DNA from: Vermamoeba vermiformis
Lineage: Eukaryota
NCBI GenBank assembly: GCA_045837725.1
Contig: JBEWZL010000115.1
Location: forward strand, 1-64,000
Reading direction: 5' to 3'
DNA length: 64,000 nucleotides
This document shows positions 1 through 46,074 of this stretch, in pieces. The stretch's first letter is position 1. The number at the start of each line of letters is the position of its first letter. A model generated the notes under the pieces. It was not told the origin of the DNA. It did not search any database and worked only from the letters and a program-made list of their open reading frames with translations. A program made the position numbers and the translations under genes.

Positions 1-1582
1 GCTTCCCCTGAGGGGAGTGTTTGGCAGAGGCTCTTCTGTTGGATTGCTTGCAGGTGTGGGAGGTGAGGGTGGTGTCAAATAAACTCCCAATTGATATGTA
101 GTGTTGCTGCCACTCACCCAAGTCCATTCATTAGAAGAAGTGTTGAATCTCCACAGGTCATTAAGATAAGCTAAATGACTGGCATAAGCAAAATTGCTTC
201 AAAAACTTCTTACACTCACCAGACACATAGGTTGGATCATAAAAAGAACCTCCAAACAACCAAACTGTTCCATCTGTGCCTGTCTGTGAGGTAGAACCCA
301 TTCGTGCAGTTGGTATGTTTGCCACTGAGGGTACTCCTTGAGTTCCATACTTTCCAAGTTGGTTTGTTGACGTTGAGCCTCCCATCCATGTCCATTGATT
401 GGTGGAGGGAGTGTACCTCCAGAGGTCATTCAAATAGCCAATGTCTAATGAAAATCAGGCTAAGAATGTTTGAAATTGACTTACTAGTAGCATTAACCAA
501 GCCATAACCTCCAAACAACCAAAATGTTCCGTTAAGGTCAATCCAAGCCTGGCTAGACCGTCGTTCACCAGGCCTTGCAGTGTCTGATGGCACTCCTAGA
601 CTACCATACTCTGCAAATTGATATTGGGTATTGTTTCCACTCATCCAAGTCCATTCATTTGTTGCAGGATTGTACTTCCATAAGTCAACATACTCCCCTG
701 AAATGTAACCTGCAACATAGCCATAACCTCCAAATAACCAAAATGTGCCATTGTGATCTGCACTTGAGCCAAAGCCTTGTCTTGAGCCAGGATTGCTGTC
801 CAATGAGGGGACTCCTTGTGTGCCATAACTTGCCACTTCAGCAGATGTATTGTTGCCACTGACCCACACCCACAACTGAGTGGAGGGGTTGTACTGCCAG
901 ATGTCATTTAAGAACTGGTTAACTAAATGTATTGTAAGAAATTGCAATGGAGACAAACGAAATCATACCCCCCCCACTTCCTCCAAACAACCAAAATGTT
1001 CCATTAGAGGCAGTCCATGACCCTGAATTTGATCTAGCACCAGGAAAATTGGATGATGAGGGTACTCCTTGAGTTCCGTAGTTTCCAAGTTGGTTTGTTA
1101 AGGATGAGCCTCCCATCCATGTCCATTGATTAGTGGAGGGAGTGTACTTCCAGAGGTCATTTAAACCACCCACTGAAGGTGGAAAAGGATCATTTGCAGC
1201 TGTGAGACCATAACCACCAAAGAGCCAGAGTGATCCATCAGCACTTGTCCACGAGATAGCACTCCCTCGTCCACCAGGAATATTGCTATCTGCTGGTACT
1301 CCTTGTGAGCCAAACTGTGCTGGTTCGTTCACAAGATAGGTGCCTTTCATCCAAGTCCACTCGTCCAGCAACGGATCATATCGCCAGAGATCATTGAAAT
1401 ATCCTAAAGCATAGGTCAATAATAATAATAACAATTATTAAGAGTGGGTATTTAACTAGCGTACCATTGCCGTTGGAACTGTATCGCGTAGTAGTGTTGC
1501 TGTAGCCCTTGCCTCCGAAAATCCAAAATTTGCCGTTGAGATCCAACCACGAAACTGGATCGGTACGAGCGCCAGGGACTGC
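1..1582 (-). CDS. Kelch/galactose-oxidase-like beta-propeller repeat protein (partial; 5' end not resolved, 3' end runs off the window)
   Basis: At least 6 repeats of NDLW(K/R)YxPxTNxWTWMxG...YGTQGVP...PGAR...GxFWLFGGYG, separated by GT-AG introns at about 172-219, 440-483, 923-968 and 1404-1463. Confidence 0.85.
327..1161. repeat. Near-identical internal duplication of one Kelch unit (327-430 vs 1058-1161)
   Basis: Direct comparison by eye: about 104 nt with 7 mismatches. Confidence 0.85.
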
Positions 1583-3128
1583 TTTTAATACTTGACACAA
1601 GTACGGAGCGATGTAAATTGCGAGCAATAATATCCGAAATAAACCTAAATAAATAAATTATTAACCTTCGTGGATAACTTGCATCTTGAATCCGCAAAAA
1701 AAGAATTAGTTGGGTATAGTAAATTTCATTAAGTAAGTAATTCTTGGCTTACGTAAGTTCATTGAGTGTGGTTTCGAATTCGAGTTTGTGATAGATAAAT
1801 GATTCATCGAAACATCTTTTTTTGCAGTGTCAACTTGTCAGAACAAACCAACCGACCAATCCAATCAATAGGATCGAATAGTGAATCACAACAAAACGAC
1901 CAAGTAGGGTAAAATACTGTATTTATTGAACGTTAAATAAACAAGGGTTGTAGTTGATAAATATCTGTTTCGGGTGGTGTTGAAAAACACCGACCAATCG
2001 CAACCAAGTTTTCCACAACACATGCATTTAACGTCAATAATCTCGTCATTATTAGTACTTTGTATAGCCACGTACTCGTGAGGATACTTGTTAAACTTAA
2101 ACATACCCAAATAATTTCCGTCCGCGACAGATCTCCGCTTTAAAATCGAGATTATGTGACATACCAACGTAAAATTAAGTTCTCATTGCTTTACTTTAAA
2201 GTATGGACAAGGTAATTTATCTGTAGGAAAAAAGCCGACAAGATCTAACGTATTTTTTATCAGCGCTACTATGTTACCATATAGTGCAATAATAGTATGT
2301 CCGCATCAGCCAAGCATATGGTCGCTTACGTATACACGACATGACATCCCTGTCACCGTTTGCGCGAAGAAAATCTCGTGGTAAGTCTACTACCGTCAAA
2401 TGTCAGCGGCGATTTGCCGACACGTTATGTAATGTGTTATTTTGACAAGAAAGCTCTGTAACAGAGACAATAATAACCGGTTCTTTGAGACGCTTCAATA
2501 CAAAGAGACTTTTGTTGCTGTTGGCTAGCCAGGAGGCATGATAAGTACCAATTCAAAGAACAAATCTTTTAACCTTTCCAAGGCAGAATAATAACCGTAA
2601 TTCGAATTAGTAGTTTTTTATCGGGCAGGTATCTCACTATGTGCAGAATTTGTTTGCAAGAAATACCGTGTTGTCTACTGGTTCAGCGAATCTACATCTA
2701 GAAAAACACCGTTCACTTATGATTGTCTTGCTAAGTTTGAGGTTTGACTTGGTACGTCAGTTCTGACTACAACGAATGGTTTAGAGTCTGAGAGCGGTAG
2801 TGCAGATTAACAGGAGTATTCTTTGGAAGTCCCTATATTTCTTAGTAGTGTAAGTCCAATTACTGCATGTTATTGGTATAGCGACAAACAATAATGCTCT
2901 AACTACGATCAGAATCGCTCGTTCAATCGCGGTGTTGAAATGGTCAGTGGATCGCGATTCATGCGAATTAATCATGACTGACTATTTTAAAACAGCCGCT
3001 TTAATACATAGTCGATATCCCAGTTGAATTTGAATTCTTTCTTTGTTTTTTGGCTGCCGATATTTTTTGAATCACTTTGACAGGCTTAAATACTGCCGAT
3101 AAATCCTGATTGTTTATTCAGATTCGCT

Positions 3129-3636
3129 ATGGCAGCCACAAGAGAATGCAAAATAATAATCTTTTTGATTATTATGCTCTTCGGAGCAGGCGCGTTCATC
3201 GCGGGCATATTTATAGCCGCAATAGGCATTAGCAGCGATGTTCTAAGTGCCGATGGTAATTACAGCGAAAAATATTTAAATTTTACTAATTATAATCAGT
3301 CATCAAAATTGCTGGCTACGTATTGATAGGCGTAGGCGGTGCTATATTCATCGTAGGCGGAATATTATTCGCTATTAACGTGTACAGTAAGTTCCGATCG
3401 TAATTCCAAATTCGCGCCTAATCATTACAGAAAAACGGCGTGACGAAACATATGAAAAACGAACGGTAAAAAAGCGAGAAAAAGAGGAAAAGAAAAGGCG
3501 GAAGGAAATTGAAGCGAATAAGAAGAACACAATGATCGCATCCTTTTCCACATCCAGCACTGCTTCAACGACTAGCGGCATGTCGACATCACGGTCGAGT
3601 GTATTATTGCTGAATACCTATCCCGAGGAGGTATAA
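3129..3636 (+). CDS. Small two-TM membrane protein with basic/charged C-terminal tail
   Basis: 3 exons: MAATRECKIIIFLIIMLFGAGAFIAGIFIAAIG / IAGYVLIGVGGAIFIVGGILFAINVY / KKRRDETYEK...YPEEV*. Confidence 0.6.
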
Positions 3637-4022
3637 GCTCATTTTTGTTGTTGTTTATAATGTACAGCTGGTTTTATACCAGAAATTAAAATCTCGAAAA
3701 CCTATCTCGACAGAAATTTCGAATCACAACCGATAATCAGGTACCTGGCGTCATATAATTATCAATATTATGTTATACGACATAAAACATCGCACGAATT
3801 CGTCAATTGGGTAGATTTAATTTCTTTTCATCGTTTGCGGATCTGGATCCAGCCCTCAATCAATGGTTTTTATCCAACAATTTCATATTCTATATGTCAA
3901 ACAAGAATAACGACCGTGGATTATGCAAAATTTTAATTGAGATATATAATAAACAATTTTACGTTGTGCGCAAAGTAGAACTTTGACGCCCACGTGACTT
4001 GACATCACCGTTCACTGAACGA

Positions 4023-7000
4023 CTAATTCTTTTTGAGAATGCTATTCACGTATTGGTCTCTATTCTTGCTGTTGTAGAGCAATTGGCTGTATTCGCCCAT
4101 CATCAGATTGTTAAATGTATAGTCGCCCGTTTTCTTGCTTCCACCGCTGAATAATTGCAATGATTAGCACGCTTGTTTTTCCCTTATATGGTAATAAATA
4201 GTACTTACTCGTAATTGAAATAATCGTAGTCTCTGTTGCAAGTGTAGCACGTGGTATTGTACAAAATGGAACTGAACAAAATGTTGTCCAATGTTCCGCG
4301 AGGACTGCCAGTCAAACCTTAAAATGATAATAAAATTAATAAAACTAGCACTAAGTTTGTACAAAAATATCGGAAATTATATTGCTAATGTTTTCACGGC
4401 TGTGAAAAATATCATTTTTTCACGGATTAGATCTTGTTCATGAACGGTGTTTCCAAATAAGGCAATACTTACGATTGATGCTCCAACAGTCCCTATTGTT
4501 CGCGCAGTCACTCAACGGACCAATCACTTGATGCTGCACAATGCTGCCGCTGATGTGTCCGAACAGATCCAGCGAACAGAGCGGTTTCCACTGATAGTCC
4601 ACTGACTGCATATTAAAGTTGTCCTTATAATACTGTTGCGTAGTTGAACTGTTGTAATCCACGCCTGCAAACAGATTTCCACCAATCGTTGGCGAGAACA
4701 CTCCGTCGCGCCATAATAGGAACAAGAGGCCTTCGAGCTTGTTCACGACGGAATAACTCGTCGACAAGAAAATAATTGTTCCGTACTCCTCGAGGGCTTC
4801 CTAATTTGGTAAAAGCAATTAATCATAAAGATCTTGGTAAAATAAAAATTGCACGTGAAAAAATTGAGATCACGGCAATTTCGATTATTTCCTTATTTGG
4901 CAAGTGTCAAGAGCATACCTTGATGACGAGAGGTCTCCACGCGTTGTTATTGATGTCAGTCACGTGCCCATTGTACTTTGAAAAGTCAAAAGTTTTCAAC
5001 GTAACTCCGCGCCACGTGTCCACTTCTTTGCGCTGCGAGTCACTGAGACCCAAGTCGTAAATCACCACGGCAATACTTGGCTCGTGCGAGTGCATCGATC
5101 CGACCTAAATGAAAATCCCATAATTAGGAAAGAGCTGCGGATCCTAAAATTATGTTCTTTTTTCACGTACGAGATTTTTGAGGTCGTTGAAGTGGCTGCT
5201 GGCGGCACCAGTGATGAATTTAATCTCGCCCTTGAGATCTTTTTCAATCTGCAAATATTTGCTGTGCGTGACAGTGTTCATGAACGACGAGGCCGTGCCT
5301 TGCGCGGGCAATGACGAGACACCCGCAGTGCAGTGCTTGGTGTAGCGGTCAGGATTGAAATACTTCGAGTACGTCGAGGACGTGCAGCGACACGATTGGT
5401 GGTCTAAAAATAGAACGTGAGGATAAATTATTGCAATGTTTTCGAGTAAAGTTTTTTCCTAACGAGAGCACGAAGTTTATGCATATCCTTTCCAAATAAG
5501 GCAATAATGCGTGAGTACGTACCGTGGAAGTCAGCCTTGACACGTGCTTTGATCGTGTTCCACTGCGCAAAGTTCTTGCTCACGCCGTCCCAGTCCTCAC
5601 ACGTGCGCACTTCGCCTGCACAATAACAAAAATAAACTATTAGCAAACCAATAGATAACAATAGCAAATATAGCACTGCAGCATAATGTCAAACAGACAT
5701 ATTATAAGTAACGGCATTAAAGATTTGTGTCGTGGGAATGTCTCGTGCTATAAATATTCAAATTTGATCATGTGCGCAAGTTCGAGAGTGTTTCCAAATA
5801 AGGAAATATCGCGTCATTGGTGTCACGTACCGTTGTAAGGTCCACTGCCGCGTCTGTGATGCAACACTTCAGTGCCAATCTTCTTCGGGTCCTCGCCACC
5901 AGCCACGTGATTGGTGAATGCCGAGTCCATGGCGCACTGCACACAGACCGTGCGATAGACTTGCATCGAGAACAGCGGCTGATCTTTGCCGTACGACCGC
6001 GTCTCGGTCAGTTCTGCCACTAAAAATAGCACAACCCGTTAGAGCAATATTACTATATTAGGAAATGAGTTGATCGAGAGCAAATTATTTGGTTCAGTGA
6101 AAATACGATTCAGTGAAAATTAATTGAATTACCTGCAGGAGGTGTCAAACACAATTCATCGAGCGCACATTCAACGGCTGGTCTGAAAATGAAATATTAG
6201 CAAAGATTACTATTTTTAGCTAAAAGTATTCTCGTTCACTGAAAATGAAAGATAGATCCGTACTTGATCACGCCGTTAAAAGCACCGCCCCAATAGGTGC
6301 CACCGTGCACGCCACCAGCAGTCATTGGTCGACCCAAAAATGACTCGAGTGTCGTGTTGAAGTGCTCGAACATGCCTGGTCTGCCACCACGTGTCAAACT
6401 GTCACCCATGCCCGTGCAGAAATAGCCTTCTTTGTTGACACGTTGACGGATGTAATTGATTGGCTGACGAATTTCATAGCCGCTGTCCACGTACAAGATC
6501 TGCACCGAAAAATTTTAGCAAAGATTTAATTTTTCCGGATCTGGTCTAATTGTAATTACCTTGCCATATTCTTCGAGTGCTTGTTGCACTACGAGAGCTT
6601 TCCACGCGAAATTTCGCAAACTTTTAACGTGTGGTGGATACTTGTCGAAATCAAAGGGCCGGATCTGTTCCGATAAATAAAAAAATCGTTAGCATTCGAT
6701 TTATCATGTTTTATAATATATTATAGTCATAATTTTATATAATAGAAATAATTAAAGTATTATCTTACCGTTACTTTACACCACTTTGAAATTTGAGCCC
6801 TATTTTCCGCTGACAGACCCAGATCATAAACAGCAATCTAATTAGAGTTGAAATAAGTACGTATATTATTAGAGCTATACCATTATACTATATTTATGCT
6901 ATTATTGCTTATTTACCTCTAAATCGGGCTCCCAGTAGTGAACAGATCCGACGATATTGCCTAAATGACCCACAAACCCAGAACTTGCAGCTGTTACGAG

Positions 7001-8912: not shown

Positions 8913-10124
8913 ATGCTCCACACAATCATCACACATACGAGTGCAGTAAAGCAAAGAGTATTCACTGCTGCATTGTCCAAGCGCACGATATTCAAGAGTG
9001 CAACGACCCAAAGTAAACCCCCTTGCAGTTCATTTGCAACCGTTGGTTTGTTCGGACTAGCGAAACAATCCTCGGTTAATATGGTACAAAATTATTCTTC
9101 GAAATTATTGTGCGGAGGCAGAAGGTCTTATACAAGTAAGTTAATTAAGCATTAGAAGTATTTGCACATTAAACAAAAAATCAGCTGCAAATGACTCCAA
9201 TCAGCGGCGTAAATTTGAGCACGTGGGTAAGGTCCATATTCCGTGACCTGCTAGCAGTAGGACTTGTGGACATGACGCTTGTTTCAGTTCAACCGACCAA
9301 TCAGTGTTGGGTATATTCGGAGGTAAAAATACATTTAAATTAAATCAGCGTTGTTTTGTTTGCACCAACTTACAACTCTCTTTAGCGACACATGATAAAG
9401 ATAACAAATCTATGCGTAAAGTTGTTGAAAATGCAAAACGAGAAGCGGACAACATTAGTACTACAGATCCGTCAAAGATTATTCAAGCCGCGGTATCTGG
9501 CTTGACCGAAAGTGACTGTCAATGGTATGTTATGATAGCGTAAGTTCAAGTGCGATTAATTACACTGCATTAGCACTGCATGCATTGCCGTATTGAAAGG
9601 CAACACCATTTGCACTGCAAATGTTGGAGGCGCAGGACTGTTGGTGTTCAGACCGTCCAACAAACAAGTAGGCTATTGTAATTCTTCTTATAATATCAGT
9701 CTATTAACATTACTGTAGATTTTGTTCCGCTCGGTAACTCAGAACCAAAACTTAAGAATTCCATCAGATAAGGAAGCTATATCGACTGCAGATGTTCAGT
9801 AGGTCATAGCTTATAGTAGTATAATTAATTTTCATCATGCCGAACAGGATCAAAGTGTCGGAAGGTGACGTCGTTCTACTGGACTCTTACAGCGTGTTCA
9901 ACAACTTGAATGACCAGCTGTTGGTCAGCTTCGCCAGCGAGGTGTTATCAACCGGCACTGGCACTGATGAGAGTTTGGCACAAAATATTGCCAATAGGGT
10001 GGCTTCCCAAGTTCTTAACGAACTAAGCAAAGCTTATGATAGGTTTAAAATTGAAAGGTGGTGTGACGTGACACTAGTGGTCGGCATTGTAGGAAAAACA
10101 GAAAAAGACGATACAAAAAAGTAG
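8913..10124 (+). pseudogene. Degenerate PTC7/PPTC7-like PP2C with presequence-like N-terminus and in-frame TGA at 9244-9246
   Basis: IP*P...CGHDACF...VLGIFG, TACIAVL...ANVGGAG, GDVVLLDSYSVFNNL and DVTLVV are colinear with PTC7 motifs (LPHP...GEDA, GVADGVGG, NLGDSG, TDGLFDN, DDITVVV). Exon phases are otherwise consistent. Confidence 0.65.
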
Positions 10125-10230
10125 AAAGACTACATAATAGTGGCGCGTAACAATTAGTCAGTCCCTTTGAATCCCGTTGAAAGGAAATTAAAATTCATAA
10201 ATAAATTATTATTGAACTTACGGCGCACTT

Positions 10231-12811
10231 TTACTTGACTTGTAATGCAATGGTTTTGTATAAAGCCATATCATTGGAGACAGTATCTAACGTATACATC
10301 ATGCGATAGTCCGCTGGCTCGAAAACAAACTAAAAAAATGGAGTTAGTCAAATCCGTTAAAATAACCCATAATGATGCTCTCTAATTACCTCGGCGGGGT
10401 ATTTGCCGTTAAGATTATCCCAAGGATATTGCTCCCATAATGCCCAACGAAGTACGGCGCTGAAACAAAACGATCAGATCGCGATCCGCCTAAAAAATTG
10501 TACGTACTTTGTAGGGAACTGTTGAGGGGCATAAGGGCTGTCCATAAGATTTAAGAGCTTCATTTCTTCGAGCAAGTATTGCAATTCATAGACCAAGCCA
10601 CCAATAAAACTTGCGACCTGATCACCGATCCGATCAGAAAGGCTTAAGAATGGAAGTGCGCTTACCATTTGTGGTCTATTAGCAATACCACCGACTACTA
10701 CAATGCGTCCTTGATTGGTTTCTTGAATATTTCGAGCCGTCAACGCGCATGCGCTACCGCAAGTTCTGAATTCGAAGAAAACGTTAGTATCCCTACATGA
10801 CCTTATTCTAATTATTAATAATTACCCATCGGTCAGTACTATGACATTAGCGGGGTTGAAGACGAAGCTCGAGTCGAAAGGAGGCACATCCAACATGGAG
10901 CAATCATCTTGCAACTTATTTGAGTACTTTGAAGCTGAATTGCCGCGGAAATAAGTATTTCCAGGTAATATCCAGCCTATTGAATTTTATATTAAGTCAT
11001 TTGCGCTTATTTTTGAAGCTTTGGATCTTACTCAGATCTTGGTATTGAGCTCCAGTGTTGTAGTCGAAGTACTTCCAAGGAGAGAAAATAGAATAGACAT
11101 CTCTAGGTAATTTAGCAGCATTTTGAGCGAGAGCGAGAGTCAAATTCGAGTGAATGACATCGAACACTGGATGTTGCGGGTATTGCAGTGATTCGGGGAA
11201 CATTAAGCGCAAGAATTGCATCGCTAAACATACGTAACCACCACCATTGCCTCTATAGTATTAAATTTATATTAGCTTTTAATTTGAAAGGTTTTGATAG
11301 AATTGAAATATTTGTTGAAATTTAAAAATCGTCTAAGTTACTTGTATATTGAATGGTATATTAAAAGGAACGCATACCTAAAGTCCAAGATGAGCTGCTT
11401 CAATTTCAATTGATTGGCCAAGACTAAAGAGCGTTGCAGATCGAACAAAAATTGAGGCTCGCTTTGCAAATCGTCGTTGGTGTCCAATCCGTATTTCTCG
11501 GGCATAAAGCTGTTGATTTTCATCGCTGCTACGCCATTTCCAACATTAAATAGAGAAATGTTCTCGCCTTGATAGATCGGTTTTTGAGATGCAGATGCGC
11601 GTTTTTGTTTTTGCGGCAAGTGATAGCTCTTGTCATCAAACAATTGTGCCTTAACATATTCAGTCTCTTCTAATATCGTAGCAGGCGAATCAACGTAAGG
11701 AATGCTGCCGTTGCGAATAGATCTGTCGCCAGTAAAACAAGCTTGATAAATGTCTGAGACATTTCTCAGTGCTGTGGCTTGCCACTTAAGAGTGACGGTG
11801 TTACTGTAATGAATATTAACAATATGGTACTCGCGTTGAAGTATTTTGAGCGGATCTTACGTAACGCCAGTTCCATAATCGTAAAGTTCGAAAGTTTCAG
11901 CTTCTTGCGATGGAATTCCATATGTACCTTGAGAACGCGTGGTATAAAGTGATTTGATGGCGTAATTGAATCTATTTAACGAAATTAGAGGAATTGAAAT
12001 CGAGCTTGGGTACTCGATCTAACTTACCTGCTGCCCAAATCAAGCGAGAACGGAGCATTAGTATCCGCAAAATTAATAAGATATGTCACTGCATTTTGAT
12101 TATTGATTTTGTTGATTCTTTTGCCCACAAGAGTCTGATCGTACTTGGCACTAATAATAACGATTTCTTGGCTCGAAGTTGACTCGTTAAATATAGACGC
12201 AATTTGGAACGGCAAGAAGAATGAAAATGAACTGTAACAGCCTGGCTTGCGGTACTGTTAAAGTGACAGCGTCAGATCTACTATCAAAAGTCGAAAGAAC
12301 TTTCAAAATTAATTTCCAGAGCACAATATTGCTTCGTAATAATATTTGCTCGTGTATCAACCATATTTCAATTATTAACTGCTTACTTGAGTGTGCGGAT
12401 CGTTCAGACTAAGAAAGAAAAAAATTATTAAGGATTGACAAGCTTATTTTGAATATCTTACGTGGTTAAAAAGTTGGCCAATGCTTGTTGAAATTCGTAA
12501 TCGGTTTTGAAATCATTTCTAGCGTTGATCTTGCTCAATCCACCGAAAATATCTACGTGCAACGGTAACCACTGTGGATCAGGGCTGTTGGCTGCTATGT
12601 CTCTAAACACGTACATTTGAAGTGCTTTTTGTACGGTGTCCATAGTTTGGGCTTTAATTGAGGCATTGTAAGGAATAGACAACATGCACGTTGCCATCTG
12701 GCCATAAGGAATGATATCTCCCTTGGTAAACGAGCATTTCTGCTGCGCCAGTGATATATTAAATATAGTAAATATAAATAAAGTTACAGAAAGGACTCTT
12801 ATTGACTTCAT
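10231..12811 (-). CDS. Secreted peptidase S41 family protein (fungal/CPAF-like type)
   Basis: Signal peptide MKSIRVLSVTLFIFTIFNISLA; LILDFRGNGGGYVC; LTDGTCGSACA (catalytic Ser); multi-exon. Confidence 0.85.
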
Positions 12812-40280: not shown

Positions 40281-41329
40281 TTAGTTACGCTTCTTGGTCT
40301 TGGTGCCTTCGTCAACAGGCCACGAGCCAGGAGGCAAAGGAAGCAATCTTGAGACAGCCTTCTGGTAGTTCTTGTATTGCGGGTACTTGGAGATGGAAAT
40401 CTGCTCGGTGAAGGGAGTAGAGCCCTGGAAGAGCGCAGTCAACAACAAAGCACCATAGCCGGTCCAGTTCCAGTACGAGGGTTGAGAAACAGCCAAAGAG
40501 AAGACAAAGAAGCACCACCACATCGCTTGTTCAGCGAAGAAGTTGGGATGGCGCGAGTAGCGGAAGAGACCGCTGTGAATGAATCCGTGAGCGAATTCGC
40601 CAGTCAAAGGCTTCTTGGCATCGATCAATTTCTTCTTGGCTTGTTGGAAGTTCCATTGTTGTTGATCCGCAACGGTCTCCATCAACAAAAAGAAAGCGAA
40701 TGCACCAGTAGCGGCGTAATCAATGTAGTTCAAGGGAGTTCCGCGCTTGAGCCATGCAAAGTACATTGGGAGCACGAACCAAGTGATGATAACGTTCTGA
40801 ATGACGGCGATAAACGTGACATTCAACAGTTGGAAGCCGATGAAGCCCAACTTCTCGCGGAGGATCTGCCAGCGGTAGTCTTCACCGTGCCAAGTGTATC
40901 CTCCCTTGCGGCCAAAGTTATAAGAAAGACGTGCGCCCCAAAGGGTAGCCAATACAGCCATAATAGCCAAGCGTTGATCGAGTTGGGTCGATTCGCCCGA
41001 CAAGACGGGTTGAGCAACAAAATACCAAGCATAAATTACGGGCATAATAGACCATAATTTATCGACTTGGGAATAGTTATTAAAGATAATTGAGCCAAAA
41101 TAGCAATAGAAAATGAAGATGAGAGTCAAAACCACAACTCCAACGAGAGCGTCAGCGTGAATGAACCAGTTCCATGCTGAGCTAGGAGTAACAGTGCTCC
41201 AGTTGAGGGCGAGCGCTTGTTTGTATGTCTGCAATAACAACGCTATTGCGTGCGCACCTGAAAATTCTAAATTCAAATACAAAAATTAGAATATTTAACT
41301 CTTTTTTAATTAAACACGGACATACCCAT
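40281..41329 (-). CDS. DUF1295 / steroid 5-alpha-reductase-like membrane protein
   Basis: NYSQVDKLWS, WGARLSYN, GEDYRW, ETVADQQQWNF, GLFRYSRHPNFFAEQ; 4-nt first exon ATGG at 41326-41329. Confidence 0.9.
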
Positions 41330-41570: not shown

Positions 41571-44500
41571 CTAGATCTGCGGATCCTCACTCATGCTAGA
41601 GTCGTCCTCTTTATCGTCGCTATTGTACTCCTCGCGCGTTGGCTTCAGACCTTTGAATCGAGTGGAGACCTTCACTAAGGCTTCTTCAGCAATTCCCCAC
41701 TTGAAGAGCGGTTGATCGAGCTGTTCTTCCGTGATCTGGCAAACACGTGCATAACGACCTGATCCTAGTCGCAATTCGATGTCCCACGACTGCGTTAATG
41801 CTATTCCAAGCTCTTTCATCAAATCAGCAATTGTTCCGTCAATGCGCATCCACACTTGTCGAACAATGTGGTGCTCGTTGAGTTTAATGTGAATAACTCT
41901 GAAGTGCATCATGCCCTTGCTCGACGAGGCCATGATCGAGTGCGGCTTCAGACGACCTTCAGAGATGTCGGCCAAGACATTGTTGGGGTTGTGTTCATTC
42001 TTCAATGCGATGTAAATATCCAGATCAATGCCCGTCACACCGCTGTCATCTGGCAGACCCTTCACCACAAATTAATACAAGTGTGTAGGCGAGTAATATA
42101 TTGCCTGGCTAGCTTACCTGAAATATCACTCCCAAGAAGTAGCCAATGGCACTGAGTGTCGCGCACAGTGATAACTTTGACGTCGTGTGCCCACCTCCAC
42201 TAGCCAGTAAAGGCAAGCTGAATTTAAGCCGTTTGTTGCCGTGCTTATCGACTATACTGCCTTGTTCGTAGCACTTGATACCGTGCTTTAAGAACGATTT
42301 GACGGCTTTAAAAATACGACCGGGAGAGCCACCTCCCGTTGCTTCAGTGCCGCACAACAACCACAGTTGGAATCGATTACTTATAGTGCCCATGCCTAAT
42401 TAGTCAGGGTGAGTAATTGAGTAATAATATAGAATTAACACTTACGTTTGACGCCACCATACTTCGGCACGTCAATGCCAAGAGCACCGTTCAAGAGATG
42501 AAGCTCCTCTAATTTCTTGCGATCATTTCGCAGCAGGGAGGCCAATACTTGACTGCCAAATACATTTGCAAGCACGTATCTATCTTGTCGCTTGATCACG
42601 CCAACTGATGCAGCCACTAATTGACGGTAAGTACTCGAGACAACAAGAATGCGAACTCCTTACCGTGTCCGGTGATAGTCTTCGTGTCCATTACCTGATT
42701 CAATATTCGAACTTGTGCAAAGTCGCCAACAGGAATACTATCATCGTGTTAGAGTTGATGAGGCTAAGTGGCTGGCAACTTACACAATCTTTTTGAACGG
42801 CGAGAAATTGACGCCATCGTACACTTTCTTTTCTTCTTTGCTCACATTCAGTTTGTTTTGAAGGAAATATGGCATTTGAGGTGTAGGTGCTACCCAACCG
42901 AGAGCGGCGATTTCCCTGCTCGTAAGTTAGACCTATTAACACATCGAGAAGCTGACTGCTTACTTGAGTGCTTTGTTCGTAAGTTTCACTCGCTGCATGA
43001 ATGGCAAGCTAGGGTCGAAGTGAATAGTCTGAATGTTGAAGTTCATCTGCAGATGTTGCACACGTGTCGGTGATACTTCATCGGGCGTGAGCCAAAAGTG
43101 AGGTCCAATGCCACCACCGAGACCTTCAGACACTTCATCGAGAATGCCTAACAAATCACGATCTCTGAGCGATGTACCAATAAAAAGGAAGCTGTACTCG
43201 GATGAAAGTTGTCTCAACAGCTCGTTCAGTGAAATATCGCGCACCATTACAGCTCTGTAGTCAGCATGTGACAGCACGAGTTCCTTGCGACCACGTTCAG
43301 AGAAATCTCCATGGAGCTTTAGCAACATTGGAGGCCGTCTTTGCGACTTCAGCTCGGCGTAGAACAAGTGCACGTCTTCTCTGAATCTGACCGGCAAGTG
43401 CGTGCCTTCACGCAATGCGAACTTTGAAATCTTAACTTCATTAGCTGAACTCTTGCTTATCCATGGAGCTTGATAGGACTACAAACATCGTTAGTTATTG
43501 CAAATATCAATCACAGAATGGACTCCGTACCTGCTCTAACATCGCGTCCCAGTTCGTGGTCAAAAGTGCAGGCCATGGGCCGCACACTAACGGCTGTAGG
43601 TCTTGCAATGTCATGTCAAACATAGAGTATTTCGAGGGTGTATTTTGGACACTATTGCGTTTCTTTTTTCTTCCACTACCATTATTGTTGTTGCTATTGT
43701 TGTTATTGTTATTGTTGGAATTGCTCGTGGTCGAAGTACTCGTGGTTGAGGTACTCGCAGTACTGTCACCGCTTTCGGACGCATTGTCAACAGCATTGGG
43801 ATTAGCTGAGATGTGTTTCTCTCTGTTTTCAGGGATCTCTGCTGCTTTCCGTTCGAACTCTTTGAACTTCTGTTCGATGCTGCTCCACATGTCTTTGCCT
43901 TGCATTTTCAGATTTGAACAGCCGAATTGAGCCAAGACAGTCAAGTCTTCAGTCTGTCGAGCGCGTTCATAGTCATCTAACTGACCTGCTTCTTCCCACA
44001 GCAACTTCACAACCCCTTCCCACCCACCATAGCTGCACGAGACAAGTTAGTTTGGTCCCTCTCGATATAGTCTCAATAGGCTGTACGTACATATTGTAAG
44101 TGACACCTGCGCCAATCCAAGGCACAACACGACGTCTCGAAAGTCTGTGAATCAACGCTTCAATGATGCTCGGTGACGCCATTGACTGTTCCAATGCACC
44201 TTCTTTTTTAGAACGACGTCTAAATACAGGAGTGGGTGTTGGATTAGGTGATGGCGGTAGCGGCGTTGTTGAGGCTGAATCAGTGAGGCTTTCAGTGGAT
44301 GGGGCTCTGGAGATCTGATCGCTGCTGTCAAGCTCCGGAGCAATCGTGTCGCTGCTCGTTGTTAATAAAACATTCTTCTTAAAAGCTCTTTTAGCCGTCG
44401 AGTCTTTGATTGGCTTTCCTTTCTGTAGCTCGATATATTGCTTCAATGGAGCGATTTTGTTGCTTCCTGTACATGTCGCGATTTAAAATTTATTCTTATA

Positions 44501-44778
44501 TTTTAAAATTATTAATGGGTTGATTTGTAAATATAGAAGTGGTATTATTAGATAATTGGCTATTTTATAAATTAATAATTAATTTTATTCATAGTATTCA
44601 GATCTAGCTGATTACTTACGACTTCGGGGAGTGTATTGAGGCTAAATTTAAATGTTATTATGGCTAGTCACTGTTGAACTGCACGTACCTTTGATTTTGA
44701 AGGAGCAGATCCAACCGCTCCTATCACGGTTATGCCAAATAAGAACAAGAAAACATATAAACAAAAGTATATAAACAT
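41571..44778 (-). CDS. SIR2_2-type (bacterial-defence-like) sirtuin/NADase domain fused to a putative Macro domain and ubiquitin-like domain
   Basis: VVPWIGAGVT..YGGW, LLTTNWDAMLE, LLKLHGD, LVLSHADY, FLFIGTSLRDRDL; downstream KIVIPVGD...FSLPLLASGGG; C-terminal QPLFKWGIAEEALVKV. About 10 exons; phases checked at most junctions, but the last acceptor (~42070) was not resolved. Confidence 0.8.
43682..43722 (-). repeat. (AAY)n microsatellite encoding poly-Asn, next to STSTT repeats, inserted inside the SIR2 domain
   Basis: SNSNNNNNNNSNNNNG directly visible. Confidence 0.9.
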
Positions 44779-44920
44779 ATTTACAATTTACATTTGAGGT
44801 TATCTACGCAAAATAATACGAATGAATGAATCACTGAAAAACGTCAGAACAGCCAATTCCCGTTTCAGTAATTTTCTCAACTTTCAATTTGTCATTTGCA
44901 CTATGACGACCGTATACTAC

Positions 44921-46074
44921 TCAACTTTGCGTATTTTCTTTCGTGCCAATAAACTGATAGTAATCCACAACGATTGGTTTGCGCACCAAGTCATCGCCCT
45001 CATTCACAGGCCAGCGTTCACTCGCTGCATTGACGAGTGTCACATTGTCGATCACTTGAAAGCCATAGCCTTCGTGCACATGGCCTAGGTGATAAAGACA
45101 CGAGTCAGTATTGGTCGTTACAGGACTGAAAGGACACAGCTAGTGCCGGTAGTTAGGTTCGTACCAAACACGTGCAAGTGTGGCTTGATCTCTTCCAACA
45201 CGCGCTTCTTCAATGCTCTGCAGCCCCAATGCCGACCATTGGCCGCGAGGTCCATGATTGAGTGCGGCGGCATGTGGCTACCGAAGGGACCGTGATCAGT
45301 TTACATTTAATAGCTACTTAGTGCCAATATGATCTCTTACGTAATTAATATGTCCACTTCATTAGGAATCAGCGCCCACTTCTCTTTTAAATTGTCTTTG
45401 GAACAACTGAATGCCATGTTTCTACGAGGTGGTAAAATGCGTCAGCAATGAGAGTGCTTATTCACGGTGTGTTAATACATACTGACTGCCTTGCCACGGT
45501 GTACCATATATTTTCAAGCCTTCGATCTCAATAAATGTGTCTTGCAGGTAAACGCCTGAAAATTCTAATGAGATCCGGGTATCTCTTCGTGCGCTGACTT
45601 ACAGTTGTATAATAATCGATCGATTTTTTCTTTTGAATATCTGTTGAACAAGTATTCATGGTTTCTATGCACAGGTGCGTAAGCGAAATTGGATCGAATA
45701 AAAAAATAATTCATCTTCATACCCAGCAATTACAACTCTGTGTTTGAAATTCTGCTTGCCCAACCACTTATTGAAATCTTTATACACTGCTTTCTCCTTG
45801 CTGCGCTTCACAAAGTCGCCTAATAAATTTAAAAATAAAGACCTAACGTATTAATTAACCTACCTGCATGAATCAATACATCGCCCTCTGGAATTTTGAG
45901 CTAATGGATTTGGGGTGTAAATAAAATTATTAAGCATATTGGATGTGGACGTACATGTGGATGCAAGTTGTGCGTGTCGCTTATTAAAACTAACCGCCAT
46001 TTCTTATAATTTTTGCTATTTTTTTGTGCGTCAGTTAAGCCGTATGGTACCTCTAATATAGGCACGTTGTCCAT
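44921..46074 (-). CDS. Calcineurin-like metallophosphoesterase (MPPED1/2, 239FB-like)
   Basis: LISDTH, GDVLIHAGD, IAGNHE, DILITHMPP, HVFGHVHEGYG. Confidence 0.92.

Follow-up and report, generated by a model that had tools for sequence, protein, structure and literature searches.

SIR2-type enzymes that cleave nicotinamide adenine dinucleotide (NAD+), the SIR2-type NADases, rank among the core effectors of immunity in bacteria, and to our knowledge FAM118B (SIRanc) is the only one so far tied to immunity in eukaryotes. Two branches of the bacterial Thoeris system offer parallels to the gene treated here. In the type I protein BcThsA, N112/H152 mutation is reported to abolish NAD+ cleavage (Ka et al. 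2020), and Macro domains are described as the signal sensor of type II. According to the available text of a recent preprint, 83 species carry the eukaryotic SIRim-Macro fusions of SIRim clade C, whose place in the tree is beside ThsA-like proteins of bacteria and whose patchy distribution suggests transfer from bacteria; an immune role was proposed from architecture alone, with no member tested in that text (Bonhomme et al., bioRxiv 10.1101/2024.09.18.613514). In the FAM118 paper, too, a figure legend lists Macro as one of the fusion partners of SIR2_2 proteins, and the SIR2-Macro fusion is in itself not new. The subject of this report is a gene on the minus strand, at 44778-41571, of a 64,000-nucleotide stretch of Vermamoeba vermiformis DNA (assembly GCA_045837725.1, contig JBEWZL010000115.1, positions 1 to 64,000), referred to below as the window. 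It encodes SIR2, Macro and ubiquitin-like (Ubl) domains in a single chain, likely behind a membrane anchor, and the protein probably belongs to SIRim-Macro clade C. An original prediction, made from the letters of the window, had called it a candidate undescribed eukaryotic immune effector, a description that the clade reported by Bonhomme et al. (2024) no longer allows. What the locus does provide is a gene model with verified internal splicing and expression, a full domain map of anchor, SIR2, Macro and Ubl, and Myxococcota homologues that are tractable and have the same architecture, one lying beside BREX (bacteriophage exclusion) and NUDIX genes. These make it possible to test gating of the SIR2 NADase by the Macro domain, the ligand involved and the carry-over of the mechanism from bacteria to eukaryotes.

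The gene is made up of nine exons that run from an ATG at 44778-44776 to a TAG stop codon at 41573-41571. Exon borders were set from the sequence and then tested against public reads, comprising contigs from runs X1 and X2 that are 95-100% identical to the window and RNA-seq reads from runs X15 and X17, which stem from a relative 90-95% identical to it. When joined, the exons give one open frame of 860-876 amino acids, depending on the choice of first junction, and all three in-frame options for that junction leave the frame open; an alternative start at the Met at 44182 would give 750 amino acids. Every one of the seven internal introns (44090-44033, 43530-43479, 42963-42916, 42783-42738, 42663-42617, 42445-42396 and 42117-42060) was seen as a joint with CT..AC borders on the plus strand, that is, GT..AG on the minus strand. 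Five were seen in spliced X1/X2 contigs and four in X15/X17 reads, the union being 7/7. Because the chain of joints runs from 44204 to 41615 and connects exons 2 to 9, each to its neighbour, this is a single gene and not two, and the two-transcript alternative raised with the original prediction falls away. That prediction had read an intron-containing eukaryotic gene here, which the joints bear out, and the strings it quoted were all found at their places in minus-strand frames. In the spliced model the motifs begin with GAG at residue 140, TTNWD at 305, KLHGD at 368, GTSL at 415 and GPHFW at 439, and continue with WLLCG at 623, PLLASGGG at 673, EGRLKP at 738 and MHFRVI at 755.

Contigs or reads cover all exons. 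In a comparison of the window with the relative's transcripts, 34 of the 40 best-supported differences fall at codon position 3 and 36 of the 39 changed codons are synonymous (a further 156 differences lie outside this set), well beyond what chance would give. Given the joints, the open frame and these third-position and synonymous changes, the gene is real, expressed and under purifying selection. Its parts are as follows.

44689-44778, minus strand: exon 1 (putative), with the ATG at 44778, a 23-residue hydrophobic segment (signal anchor) and then a short basic stretch
44441-44688, minus strand: intron 1 (putative), with donor GTACGT at 44688 and acceptor at 44441 in phase 0, or at 44467
44091-44440, minus strand: exon 2, a low-complexity Ser/Thr/Pro-rich linker and the start of SIR2 with the GAG NAD-binding loop
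44033-44090, minus strand: intron 2, 58 nucleotides (nt), GTACGT..CAG; joint 44032 to 44091 in an X1 contig, and a related joint in X17/X15 reads
43531-44032, minus strand: exon 3, the N-terminal half of SIR2 with a Ser/Thr/Asn-rich insert, ending in TTNWD (catalytic Asn)
43479-43530, minus strand: intron 3, 52 nt, GTACGG..TAG; joint 43478 to 43531 in an X1 contig
42964-43478, minus strand: exon 4, the C-terminal half of SIR2 with KLHGD (catalytic His), FIGTSLRD and GPHFW
42916-42963, minus strand: intron 4, 48 nt, GTAAGC..CAG; joint 42914 to 42963 in 6 X15 and 18 X17 reads
42784-42915, minus strand: exon 5, the SIR2-Macro linker, whose counterpart in the model of the homologue P0013 is disordered (residues 445-474)
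42738-42783, minus strand: intron 5, 46 nt, GTAAGT..TAG; joint 42737 to 42784 in X1 and X2 contigs, and the equivalent joint in 15 X15 and 37 X17 reads
42664-42737, minus strand: exon 6, the first Macro strands
42617-42663, minus strand: intron 6, 47 nt, GTAAGG..TAG; joint 42616 to 42664 in X1 and X2 contigs
42446-42616, minus strand: exon 7, mid-Macro with a eukaryote-specific helical insert
42396-42445, minus strand: intron 7, 50 nt, GTAAGT..TAG; joint 42394 to 42445 in 4 X15 and 7 X17 reads
42118-42395, minus strand: exon 8, the Macro core with the WLLCG strand and the PLLASGGG glycine-rich loop
42060-42117, minus strand: intron 8, 58 nt, GTAAGC..AAG; joint 42058 to 42117 in a 715-nt X1 contig
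41571-42059, minus strand: exon 9, the last Macro strand and helices with EGRLKP, the Ubl beta-grasp, an acidic tail and the stop codon

Exon 2 is spanned by X1/X2 contigs from 44166 to 44434 and aligns to the start of the bacterial homologues. Within the SIR2 domain, the Ser/Thr/Asn-rich insert of exon 3 (43640-43790, minus strand) contains a poly-Asn run and KKKR; it is missing from the 804-amino-acid (aa) homologue P0013 and from all bacterial homologues. At 43413-43540, four reads of the relative's RNA carry a joint with AA..AA ends that skips 126 nt. This joint does not agree with the confirmed intron 43530-43479; it could stem from misalignment of a diverged copy or represent a rare isoform.

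The SIR2 domain is closest to the defence NADases ThsA, KomC, DSR2 and FAM118B and not to the deacetylase sirtuins. Exon 4 matches the Pfam family SIR2_2 (PF13289) at E 1.3e-18, with 67.9 bits against a curated cut-off of 24.5, and the same family is matched by 5/5 homologues tested. In PADLOC the homologues are nearest to the SIR2 half of ThsA (up to E 1.6e-17), and with a family profile the best solved relative is BcThsA (E 1.8e-18). The TTNWD and KLHGD motifs align to TTNYD (N112) and KMHGD (H152) of that protein, and the catalytic Asn and His are invariant in 10/10 bacterial homologues. At the level of fold, the P0013 model (predicted template modelling score, pTM, 0.74) matches KomC with a Z score of 21.4, SeThsA with 20.0, FAM118B with 18.5 and the SIR2 domain of Avs5 with 16.9-18.0, and DSR2-type SIR2 structures also rank among its best matches. 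Membership of the canonical deacetylase sirtuins (SIR2, PF02146) was considered and rejected. Classical sirtuins match the P0013 model at Z 9.8-10.9 only, compared with 18-21 for KomC, ThsA and FAM118B, and none occurs among the 33 sequence matches of the family profile. The spliced protein has seven scattered Cys residues and no CxxC, and so is without the zinc-binding Cys tetrad; the legend of figure S2 in Bonhomme et al. gives absence of this canonical sirtuin tetrad as the SIRim criterion. On all of these points the original prediction, which had placed the protein in SIR2_2, apart from the deacetylase sirtuins and lacking their zinc-binding Cys, was correct.

The last ~350 residues have no Pfam or PADLOC match, and their assignment comes from profiles and models of the family. 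Weak profile matches link the middle region to the macro protein TTHA0132 (E 5.3e-4 and 0.018), whose glycine-rich FPLLGTGVGG stretch aligns with a PLLAxGGG loop that is kept in most family members. The C-terminal fragment P0119 of a bacterial homologue (295 aa), modelled from an 18-sequence alignment with a mean predicted local distance difference test (pLDDT) of 91.4 and pTM 0.90, forms a macro fold, a three-layer alpha/beta/alpha sandwich, over residues 19-206. Foldseek gave 189 matches for this model at E<=1e-3, and the top ranks are macro domains or macro-derived scaffolds. By VIA-align the closest are PARP14 (Z 17.0, root-mean-square deviation (rmsd) 3.0 A over 168 residues), an Oceanobacillus macrodomain (16.9) and Af1521 (16.3), followed by the Macro domain of type II Thoeris EcThsA (8v6q, 12.4) and Mfs1 (8rsn, 11.6). 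The model of the eukaryotic P0013 has the same fold at approximately residues 477-701 (Z 15.7; 8v6q 10.6, 8rsn 12.7), and a family Macro hidden Markov model (HMM) matches the spliced window protein at residues 517-750 with E 2.6e-51. The Macro domain proposed for the middle of the protein is thus supported by the bacterial model, the eukaryotic model and the family HMM. The suggested kinship to the Macro sensor of type II Thoeris ThsA fared worse, as 8v6q shows no special closeness (Z 12.4 and 10.6) when set against PARP14/AF1521-type domains at 15-17.

The tail of the protein had been predicted to be a beta-grasp or ubiquitin-like fold, and the homologue model agrees. Residues 209-295 of P0119 match eight ubiquitin-family chains (ubiquitin, ISG15, TINCR, UBX-like) at Z 8.5-9.1, values that only just exceed the aligner's usual background of 7-8; the alignments cover 65-74 residues at an rmsd of 1.9-2.3 A, and the fold spans the whole of ubiquitin. 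The same order of strands and helix is found at 704-790 of the P0013 model, and the family Ubl HMM matches the spliced window protein at residues 752-839 with E 2.1e-28. From its sequence the domain appears to be a non-conjugatable beta-grasp. The C-terminal Gly-Gly is not present, the bacterial proteins stopping a few residues past the last strand and the eukaryotic Ubl continuing into an acidic tail without a terminal Gly-Gly. The most conserved motif of the family, D-x-x-x-G-R-x-x-P, lies between Macro and Ubl, and its Gly is the only invariant column over 18 sequences. When two copies of P0119 were predicted together, the Macro-Ubl homodimer scored 0.42, compared with 0.00 for the best of three controls; this mark was reached by 21/30 proteins solved as same-chain pairs and by 0/23 solved as single chains. 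At least 71% of contacts agree between the runs, with a partner pLDDT of at least 81, and the residues predicted to lie at the interface are those of the first Macro strand (13-27) and 193-211, the latter stretch holding the D-x-x-x-G-R-x-x-P motif. The prediction supports, but does not show, self-association of the Macro-Ubl module. In six closer SIR2 relatives of 581-972 aa (P0042, P0045, P0049, P0050, P0046 and P0060) Macro is present and Ubl is not detectable, and the family is broader than its Ubl-bearing core.

At the other end of the chain, an N-terminal membrane anchor is likely. Residues 1-19 form the strongest hydrophobic 19-residue stretch of the whole protein (Kyte-Doolittle mean 2.53). 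The reading is favoured by two 804-aa homologues from short transcript-like contigs, P0013 and P0016, which share 55% identity with the window protein along 759 aa: each likewise starts with a hydrophobic helix, and ~100 disordered Pro/Lys-rich residues come next. The start of these homologues cannot lie at the position of the window's internal Met 44182 because both have Leu there. In the window protein and in P0013, basic residues follow the hydrophobic segment. Basic residues orient a membrane segment by the positive-inside rule, and the protein would thus be tethered with its catalytic part on the cytosolic side of the membrane. The relative's RNA reads cover exon 1 (44667-44787), the intron 1 donor GTACGT at 44688 resembles the other donors, and the acceptor at 44441 is in phase with it; the acceptor at 44467 requires a weaker donor, GTGCAG at 44684. 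A third candidate acceptor, at 44423, does not fit an X1 contig that continues without a break as far as 44434. Counting against the anchor, no exon 1-exon 2 joint and no loose end was seen among the contigs and reads listed, depth is near nil over 44425-44666, and the exon 1 reads could be the 3' untranslated region of an upstream gene that ends at 44921. The anchor is therefore best described as likely but not proven, depending as it does on homology and on reads of possibly other origin. Of the membrane-tethered N-terminus originally predicted, the hydrophobic segment and its likeness to the homologues stand and the junction that would attach it was not seen. The low-complexity linker holds, as a Ser/Thr/Pro-rich stretch in exon 2 and a disordered linker in P0013 and P0016. 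The upstream gene lies on the same strand and ends ~140 nt ahead of the putative ATG, and the relative's RNA reads span this gap (44788-44923) with small indels at 44826, 44850 and 44857/8; they may be the 3' untranslated region of that gene or the 5' untranslated region of the SIR2-Macro-Ubl gene.

Relatives of the protein are few. A scan of 1.84 billion representatives with P0001 gave 196 proteins at E<=1e-3. Among the best 150 of these 196 matches, 11 align in two separate stretches, 8/11 being 550-604 aa long and the others 517, 659 and 927 aa. When the last 293 residues of P0004 were used in a word-indexed search, only two proteins came back, too few to bear on other fusions, and a genome-contig search with P0004 alone found no related locus. 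Bacteria-only alignment searching found two loci in metagenome-assembled genomes (Myxococcota, Nannocystaceae) and one metagenome contig. The bacterial homologues are ~575 aa long and rare, and have the same SIR2-Macro-Ubl chain without an anchor or transmembrane (TM) segment. In a tree of the SIR2 domain, SIR2-Macro proteins form a clade relative to other SIR2_2 matches, with 99 in the Shimodaira-Hasegawa-like approximate likelihood ratio test (SH-aLRT). This was a quick tree (LG+G4, SH-aLRT only) of 38 rows, made up of 21 with the Macro HMM, P0030 and 16 hand-picked outgroup rows, drawn from a pool of 106 with 75% or more of the SIR2 HMM, seven redundant or truncated rows having been removed beforehand. 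It gives no resolved order for the eukaryotic and bacterial subclades and allows no claim about the donor or the direction of transfer; horizontal transfer is most likely part of a history that the gene has in common with its bacterial homologues. A bacterial 580-aa "Macro/SIR2-like" cluster in a protein atlas (score 0.85) is a lead only. Three matches, P0028, P0029 and P0005, are Ala/Gly-rich and look like products of GC-rich eukaryotes. Two 50%-identical paralogue groups, of P0013 type and P0020 type, have fragments on the same contigs of 420,551 and 444,850 nt, and two copies may therefore sit on a single piece of chromosome in relatives; the window holds one copy only.

The clearest bacterial setting is that of the metagenome contig (L003), where the homologue at 3138-4907 is identical to P0037. 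A NUDIX gene stands upstream on the same strand, MrcB_N follows, and BrxHI, BrxD, PglZ and BrxC come next on the opposite strand; these surroundings are a BREX defence island. The NUDIX gene (2202-3074, plus strand, 290 aa, E 4.4e-14) ends 64 nt upstream of the SIR2-Macro-Ubl gene and has no assignment for its N-terminal 150 residues. It is a possible partner acting on nucleotides of the ADP-ribose (ADPR) type. On the same contig, PglZ appears as two overlapping open reading frames (ORFs) within 9173-12120 on the minus strand (9173-11068 and 10855-12120), the first matching the C-terminal and the second the N-terminal part of PglZ models, which may reflect a frameshift or an assembly error. 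In a Nannocystaceae locus (L002), the stretch upstream of the homologue (147-2121, plus strand) holds an IetA-like AAA ATPase (E 5.1e-42) and, directly before the homologue, a 228-aa ORF. Neither Pfam nor PADLOC matches this ORF, it bears no resemblance to the NUDIX gene of L003, and since the two differ no conserved two-gene operon is shown. The third locus (L001) has an RNase_T-WYL gene nearby.

In the window itself the neighbours are ordinary eukaryotic genes (DUF1295, SET, F-box, LRR, O-methyltransferase, NmrA and pirin). Directly downstream is an intron-free DUF1295 (steroid-reductase-like) ORF of 334 codons (40281-41285, minus strand, E 1.9e-46), an ordinary neighbour unconnected to the SIR2-Macro-Ubl gene.

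The best explanation of this four-part protein, which by analogy we judge slightly better than an even bet, is that it acts as a latent, ligand-gated NAD+ glycohydrolase. It is made up of a probable N-terminal membrane anchor leading into a disordered, basic linker, then a SIR2_2 domain of ThsA type that keeps the catalytic Asn and His, a divergent Macro and a Ubl. The SIR2 domain would be the latent enzyme, held in check by the Macro-Ubl module as a dimer. Binding of an ADPR-containing signal or an ADP-ribosylated target to the Macro domain would then switch the SIR2 domain on, probably through higher-order assembly like that of ThsA, KomC and FAM118B filaments, and NAD+ would be depleted in the infected or stressed cell. 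This reading is drawn from the analogy with ThsA, in which a SLOG sensor is joined to filament formation, and with the Macro sensor of type II Thoeris. A bolder version is that the eukaryote has kept a complete Myxococcota-type single-chain SIR2-Macro-Ubl effector, tethered to the membrane, as an ADPR-signal-gated suicide switch that depletes NAD+, with the beta-grasp domain and D-x-x-x-G-R-x-x-P as its dimer and assembly switch. We offer it tentatively and think it unlikely to hold in full. If true, a Thoeris-like second-messenger immune effector would be at work in a eukaryotic cell, and the beta-grasp domain with its motif would be a previously unrecognised dimer and assembly switch.

Several points weigh against the gated-NADase reading. 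Pfam Macro (PF01661) gives no match at E<=1 in the window exons and five homologues. The invariant Gln and Arg of the bacterial Macro motif WLVxGQ....GR are Thr and Ser in the window protein, and the eukaryotic Macro domain may therefore bind ligand differently or no longer at all. The structures were modelled for homologues with 55% and 29% identity to the window protein rather than for that protein, and the dimer result comes from a fragment of a bacterial homologue, predicted with the alignment not used. Among the ORFs scanned beside the homologue in the three bacterial loci there is no TIR gene, which leaves the source of a gating signal without a candidate TIR or synthase neighbour. Two of the three loci are truncated contigs, and a clear defence island is present in one only. 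For the family as a whole, the enzymatic, binding and infection roles are inferred from homology.

Some of these same points would suit a protein-triggered effector, in which the Macro-Ubl scaffold recognises a pathogen protein or mediates assembly and the Macro pocket is vestigial, as DSR2 senses the phage tail tube. The bacterial pocket invariants are not retained in the eukaryotic proteins, 3/3 bacterial loci have no TIR or other signal-synthase neighbour, the most conserved motif sits at the predicted protein-protein interface, and DSR2-type SIR2 structures rank among the best fold matches. A vestigial pocket sits poorly with the glycine-rich PLLAxGGG loop, aligned with the macro loop of TTHA0132 and retained in most members, and with the NUDIX gene directly upstream on the same strand in L003, which belongs to a family that acts on ADP-ribose-type nucleotides. 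We regard this alternative as improbable, although it ranks first among the rivals.

Slightly less probable again is a writer and eraser in one chain. On this scheme, which follows the macrodomain-linked SirTM sirtuins, SIR2 would attach ADP-ribose to a protein or nucleic acid and the Macro domain would read that modification or take it off again. Linkage of a sirtuin to a macrodomain for reversible ADP-ribosylation is reported as established, and both models of the Macro domain match the macrodomain found in the Mfs1 SirTM fusion (8rsn; Z 11.6 and 12.7). However, 8rsn aligns through its macro part alone (residues 479-695), and the affinities of the SIR2 domain are with SIR2_2 proteins of the NADase type (ThsA, KomC, DSR2 and FAM118B). 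Hydrolytic macrodomains carry an Asn and a Gly-Gly-Gly loop; in the SIR2-Macro-Ubl family the corresponding region is variable and not glycine-rich.

A non-immune role in housekeeping or signalling, with the protein as a membrane-tethered regulator of local NAD+/ADPR metabolism, receives marginally lower odds from us than the writer-eraser scheme. It would fit the ordinary window neighbours and the expression of the gene in samples not known to be infected. It is harder to square with the nearest characterised relatives of the SIR2 domain, all of which are defence NADases, with a bacterial homologue inside a BREX island, and with the rarity and patchiness of the family (196 matches among 1.84 billion), a pattern typical of conflict genes. 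That the locus is an artefact, whether bacterial contamination, a pseudogene or two genes, is refuted and very nearly without probability, given eight GT..AG introns of which seven were observed spliced, eukaryotic flanking genes, a frame open over all exons, mostly synonymous substitutions and joints between every exon pair from 2 to 9, with the 5' junction the sole loose point.

Of the known systems, SIRim-Macro clade C shares with the window protein both the SIRim-Macro architecture and ThsA-like bacterial relatives. The available text on that clade mentions neither a C-terminal Ubl nor an N-terminal anchor, while the window protein has a Ubl and a putative anchor. Literature searches on SIR2-Macro-beta-grasp proteins, covering papers without their supplements, found no mention of a Ubl tail, an anchor or a Myxococcota/BREX context, and the available text of a 2025 preprint on TIR systems likewise has no mention of a Ubl or an anchor. 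SirTM sirtuins, exemplified by Mfs1 from Fusarium (8rsn), also join an enzyme of sirtuin fold to a macrodomain within a single chain. They belong to another sirtuin subfamily, with another order and role of the macrodomain, and only the macro part aligns. FAM118B and FAM118A (SIRanc, 9r0p) are, like the window protein, eukaryotic SIR2_2 proteins akin to antiphage sirtuins (Z 18.5), and they process NAD and form filaments. They are described as a separate, vertebrate-specific clade without Macro or Ubl, and the family profile matches them at E 1e-5, compared with 1.8e-18 for ThsA.

Type II Thoeris ThsA (TM-Macro; EcThsA, 8v6q) has in common with the window protein a Macro domain presumed to sense an ADPR signal and, in the eukaryotic protein, a membrane segment; self-association of the Macro domain is likewise predicted for P0119. 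The killing part of type II ThsA is a membrane-disrupting two-helix TM region, whereas here it is of the SIR2 NADase type, and the TM effector with adjacent TIR that marks type II Thoeris is absent, the bacterial homologues having neither a TM segment nor a TIR neighbour. Type I Thoeris ThsA (SIR2-SLOG; BcThsA, 6lhx/8bto) shares the catalytic Asn and His, the closest SIR2 match and the layout of an N-terminal SIR2 domain followed by a C-terminal nucleotide sensor, and is itself activated by assembly. The SLOG domain and adjacent TIR that mark type I Thoeris are not found, with no ThsB/TIR beside the three bacterial loci. Matches to the PADLOC model ThsA1 end at or before position 295 of 478, and in place of the SLOG sensor of ThsA the protein described here carries Macro and Ubl.

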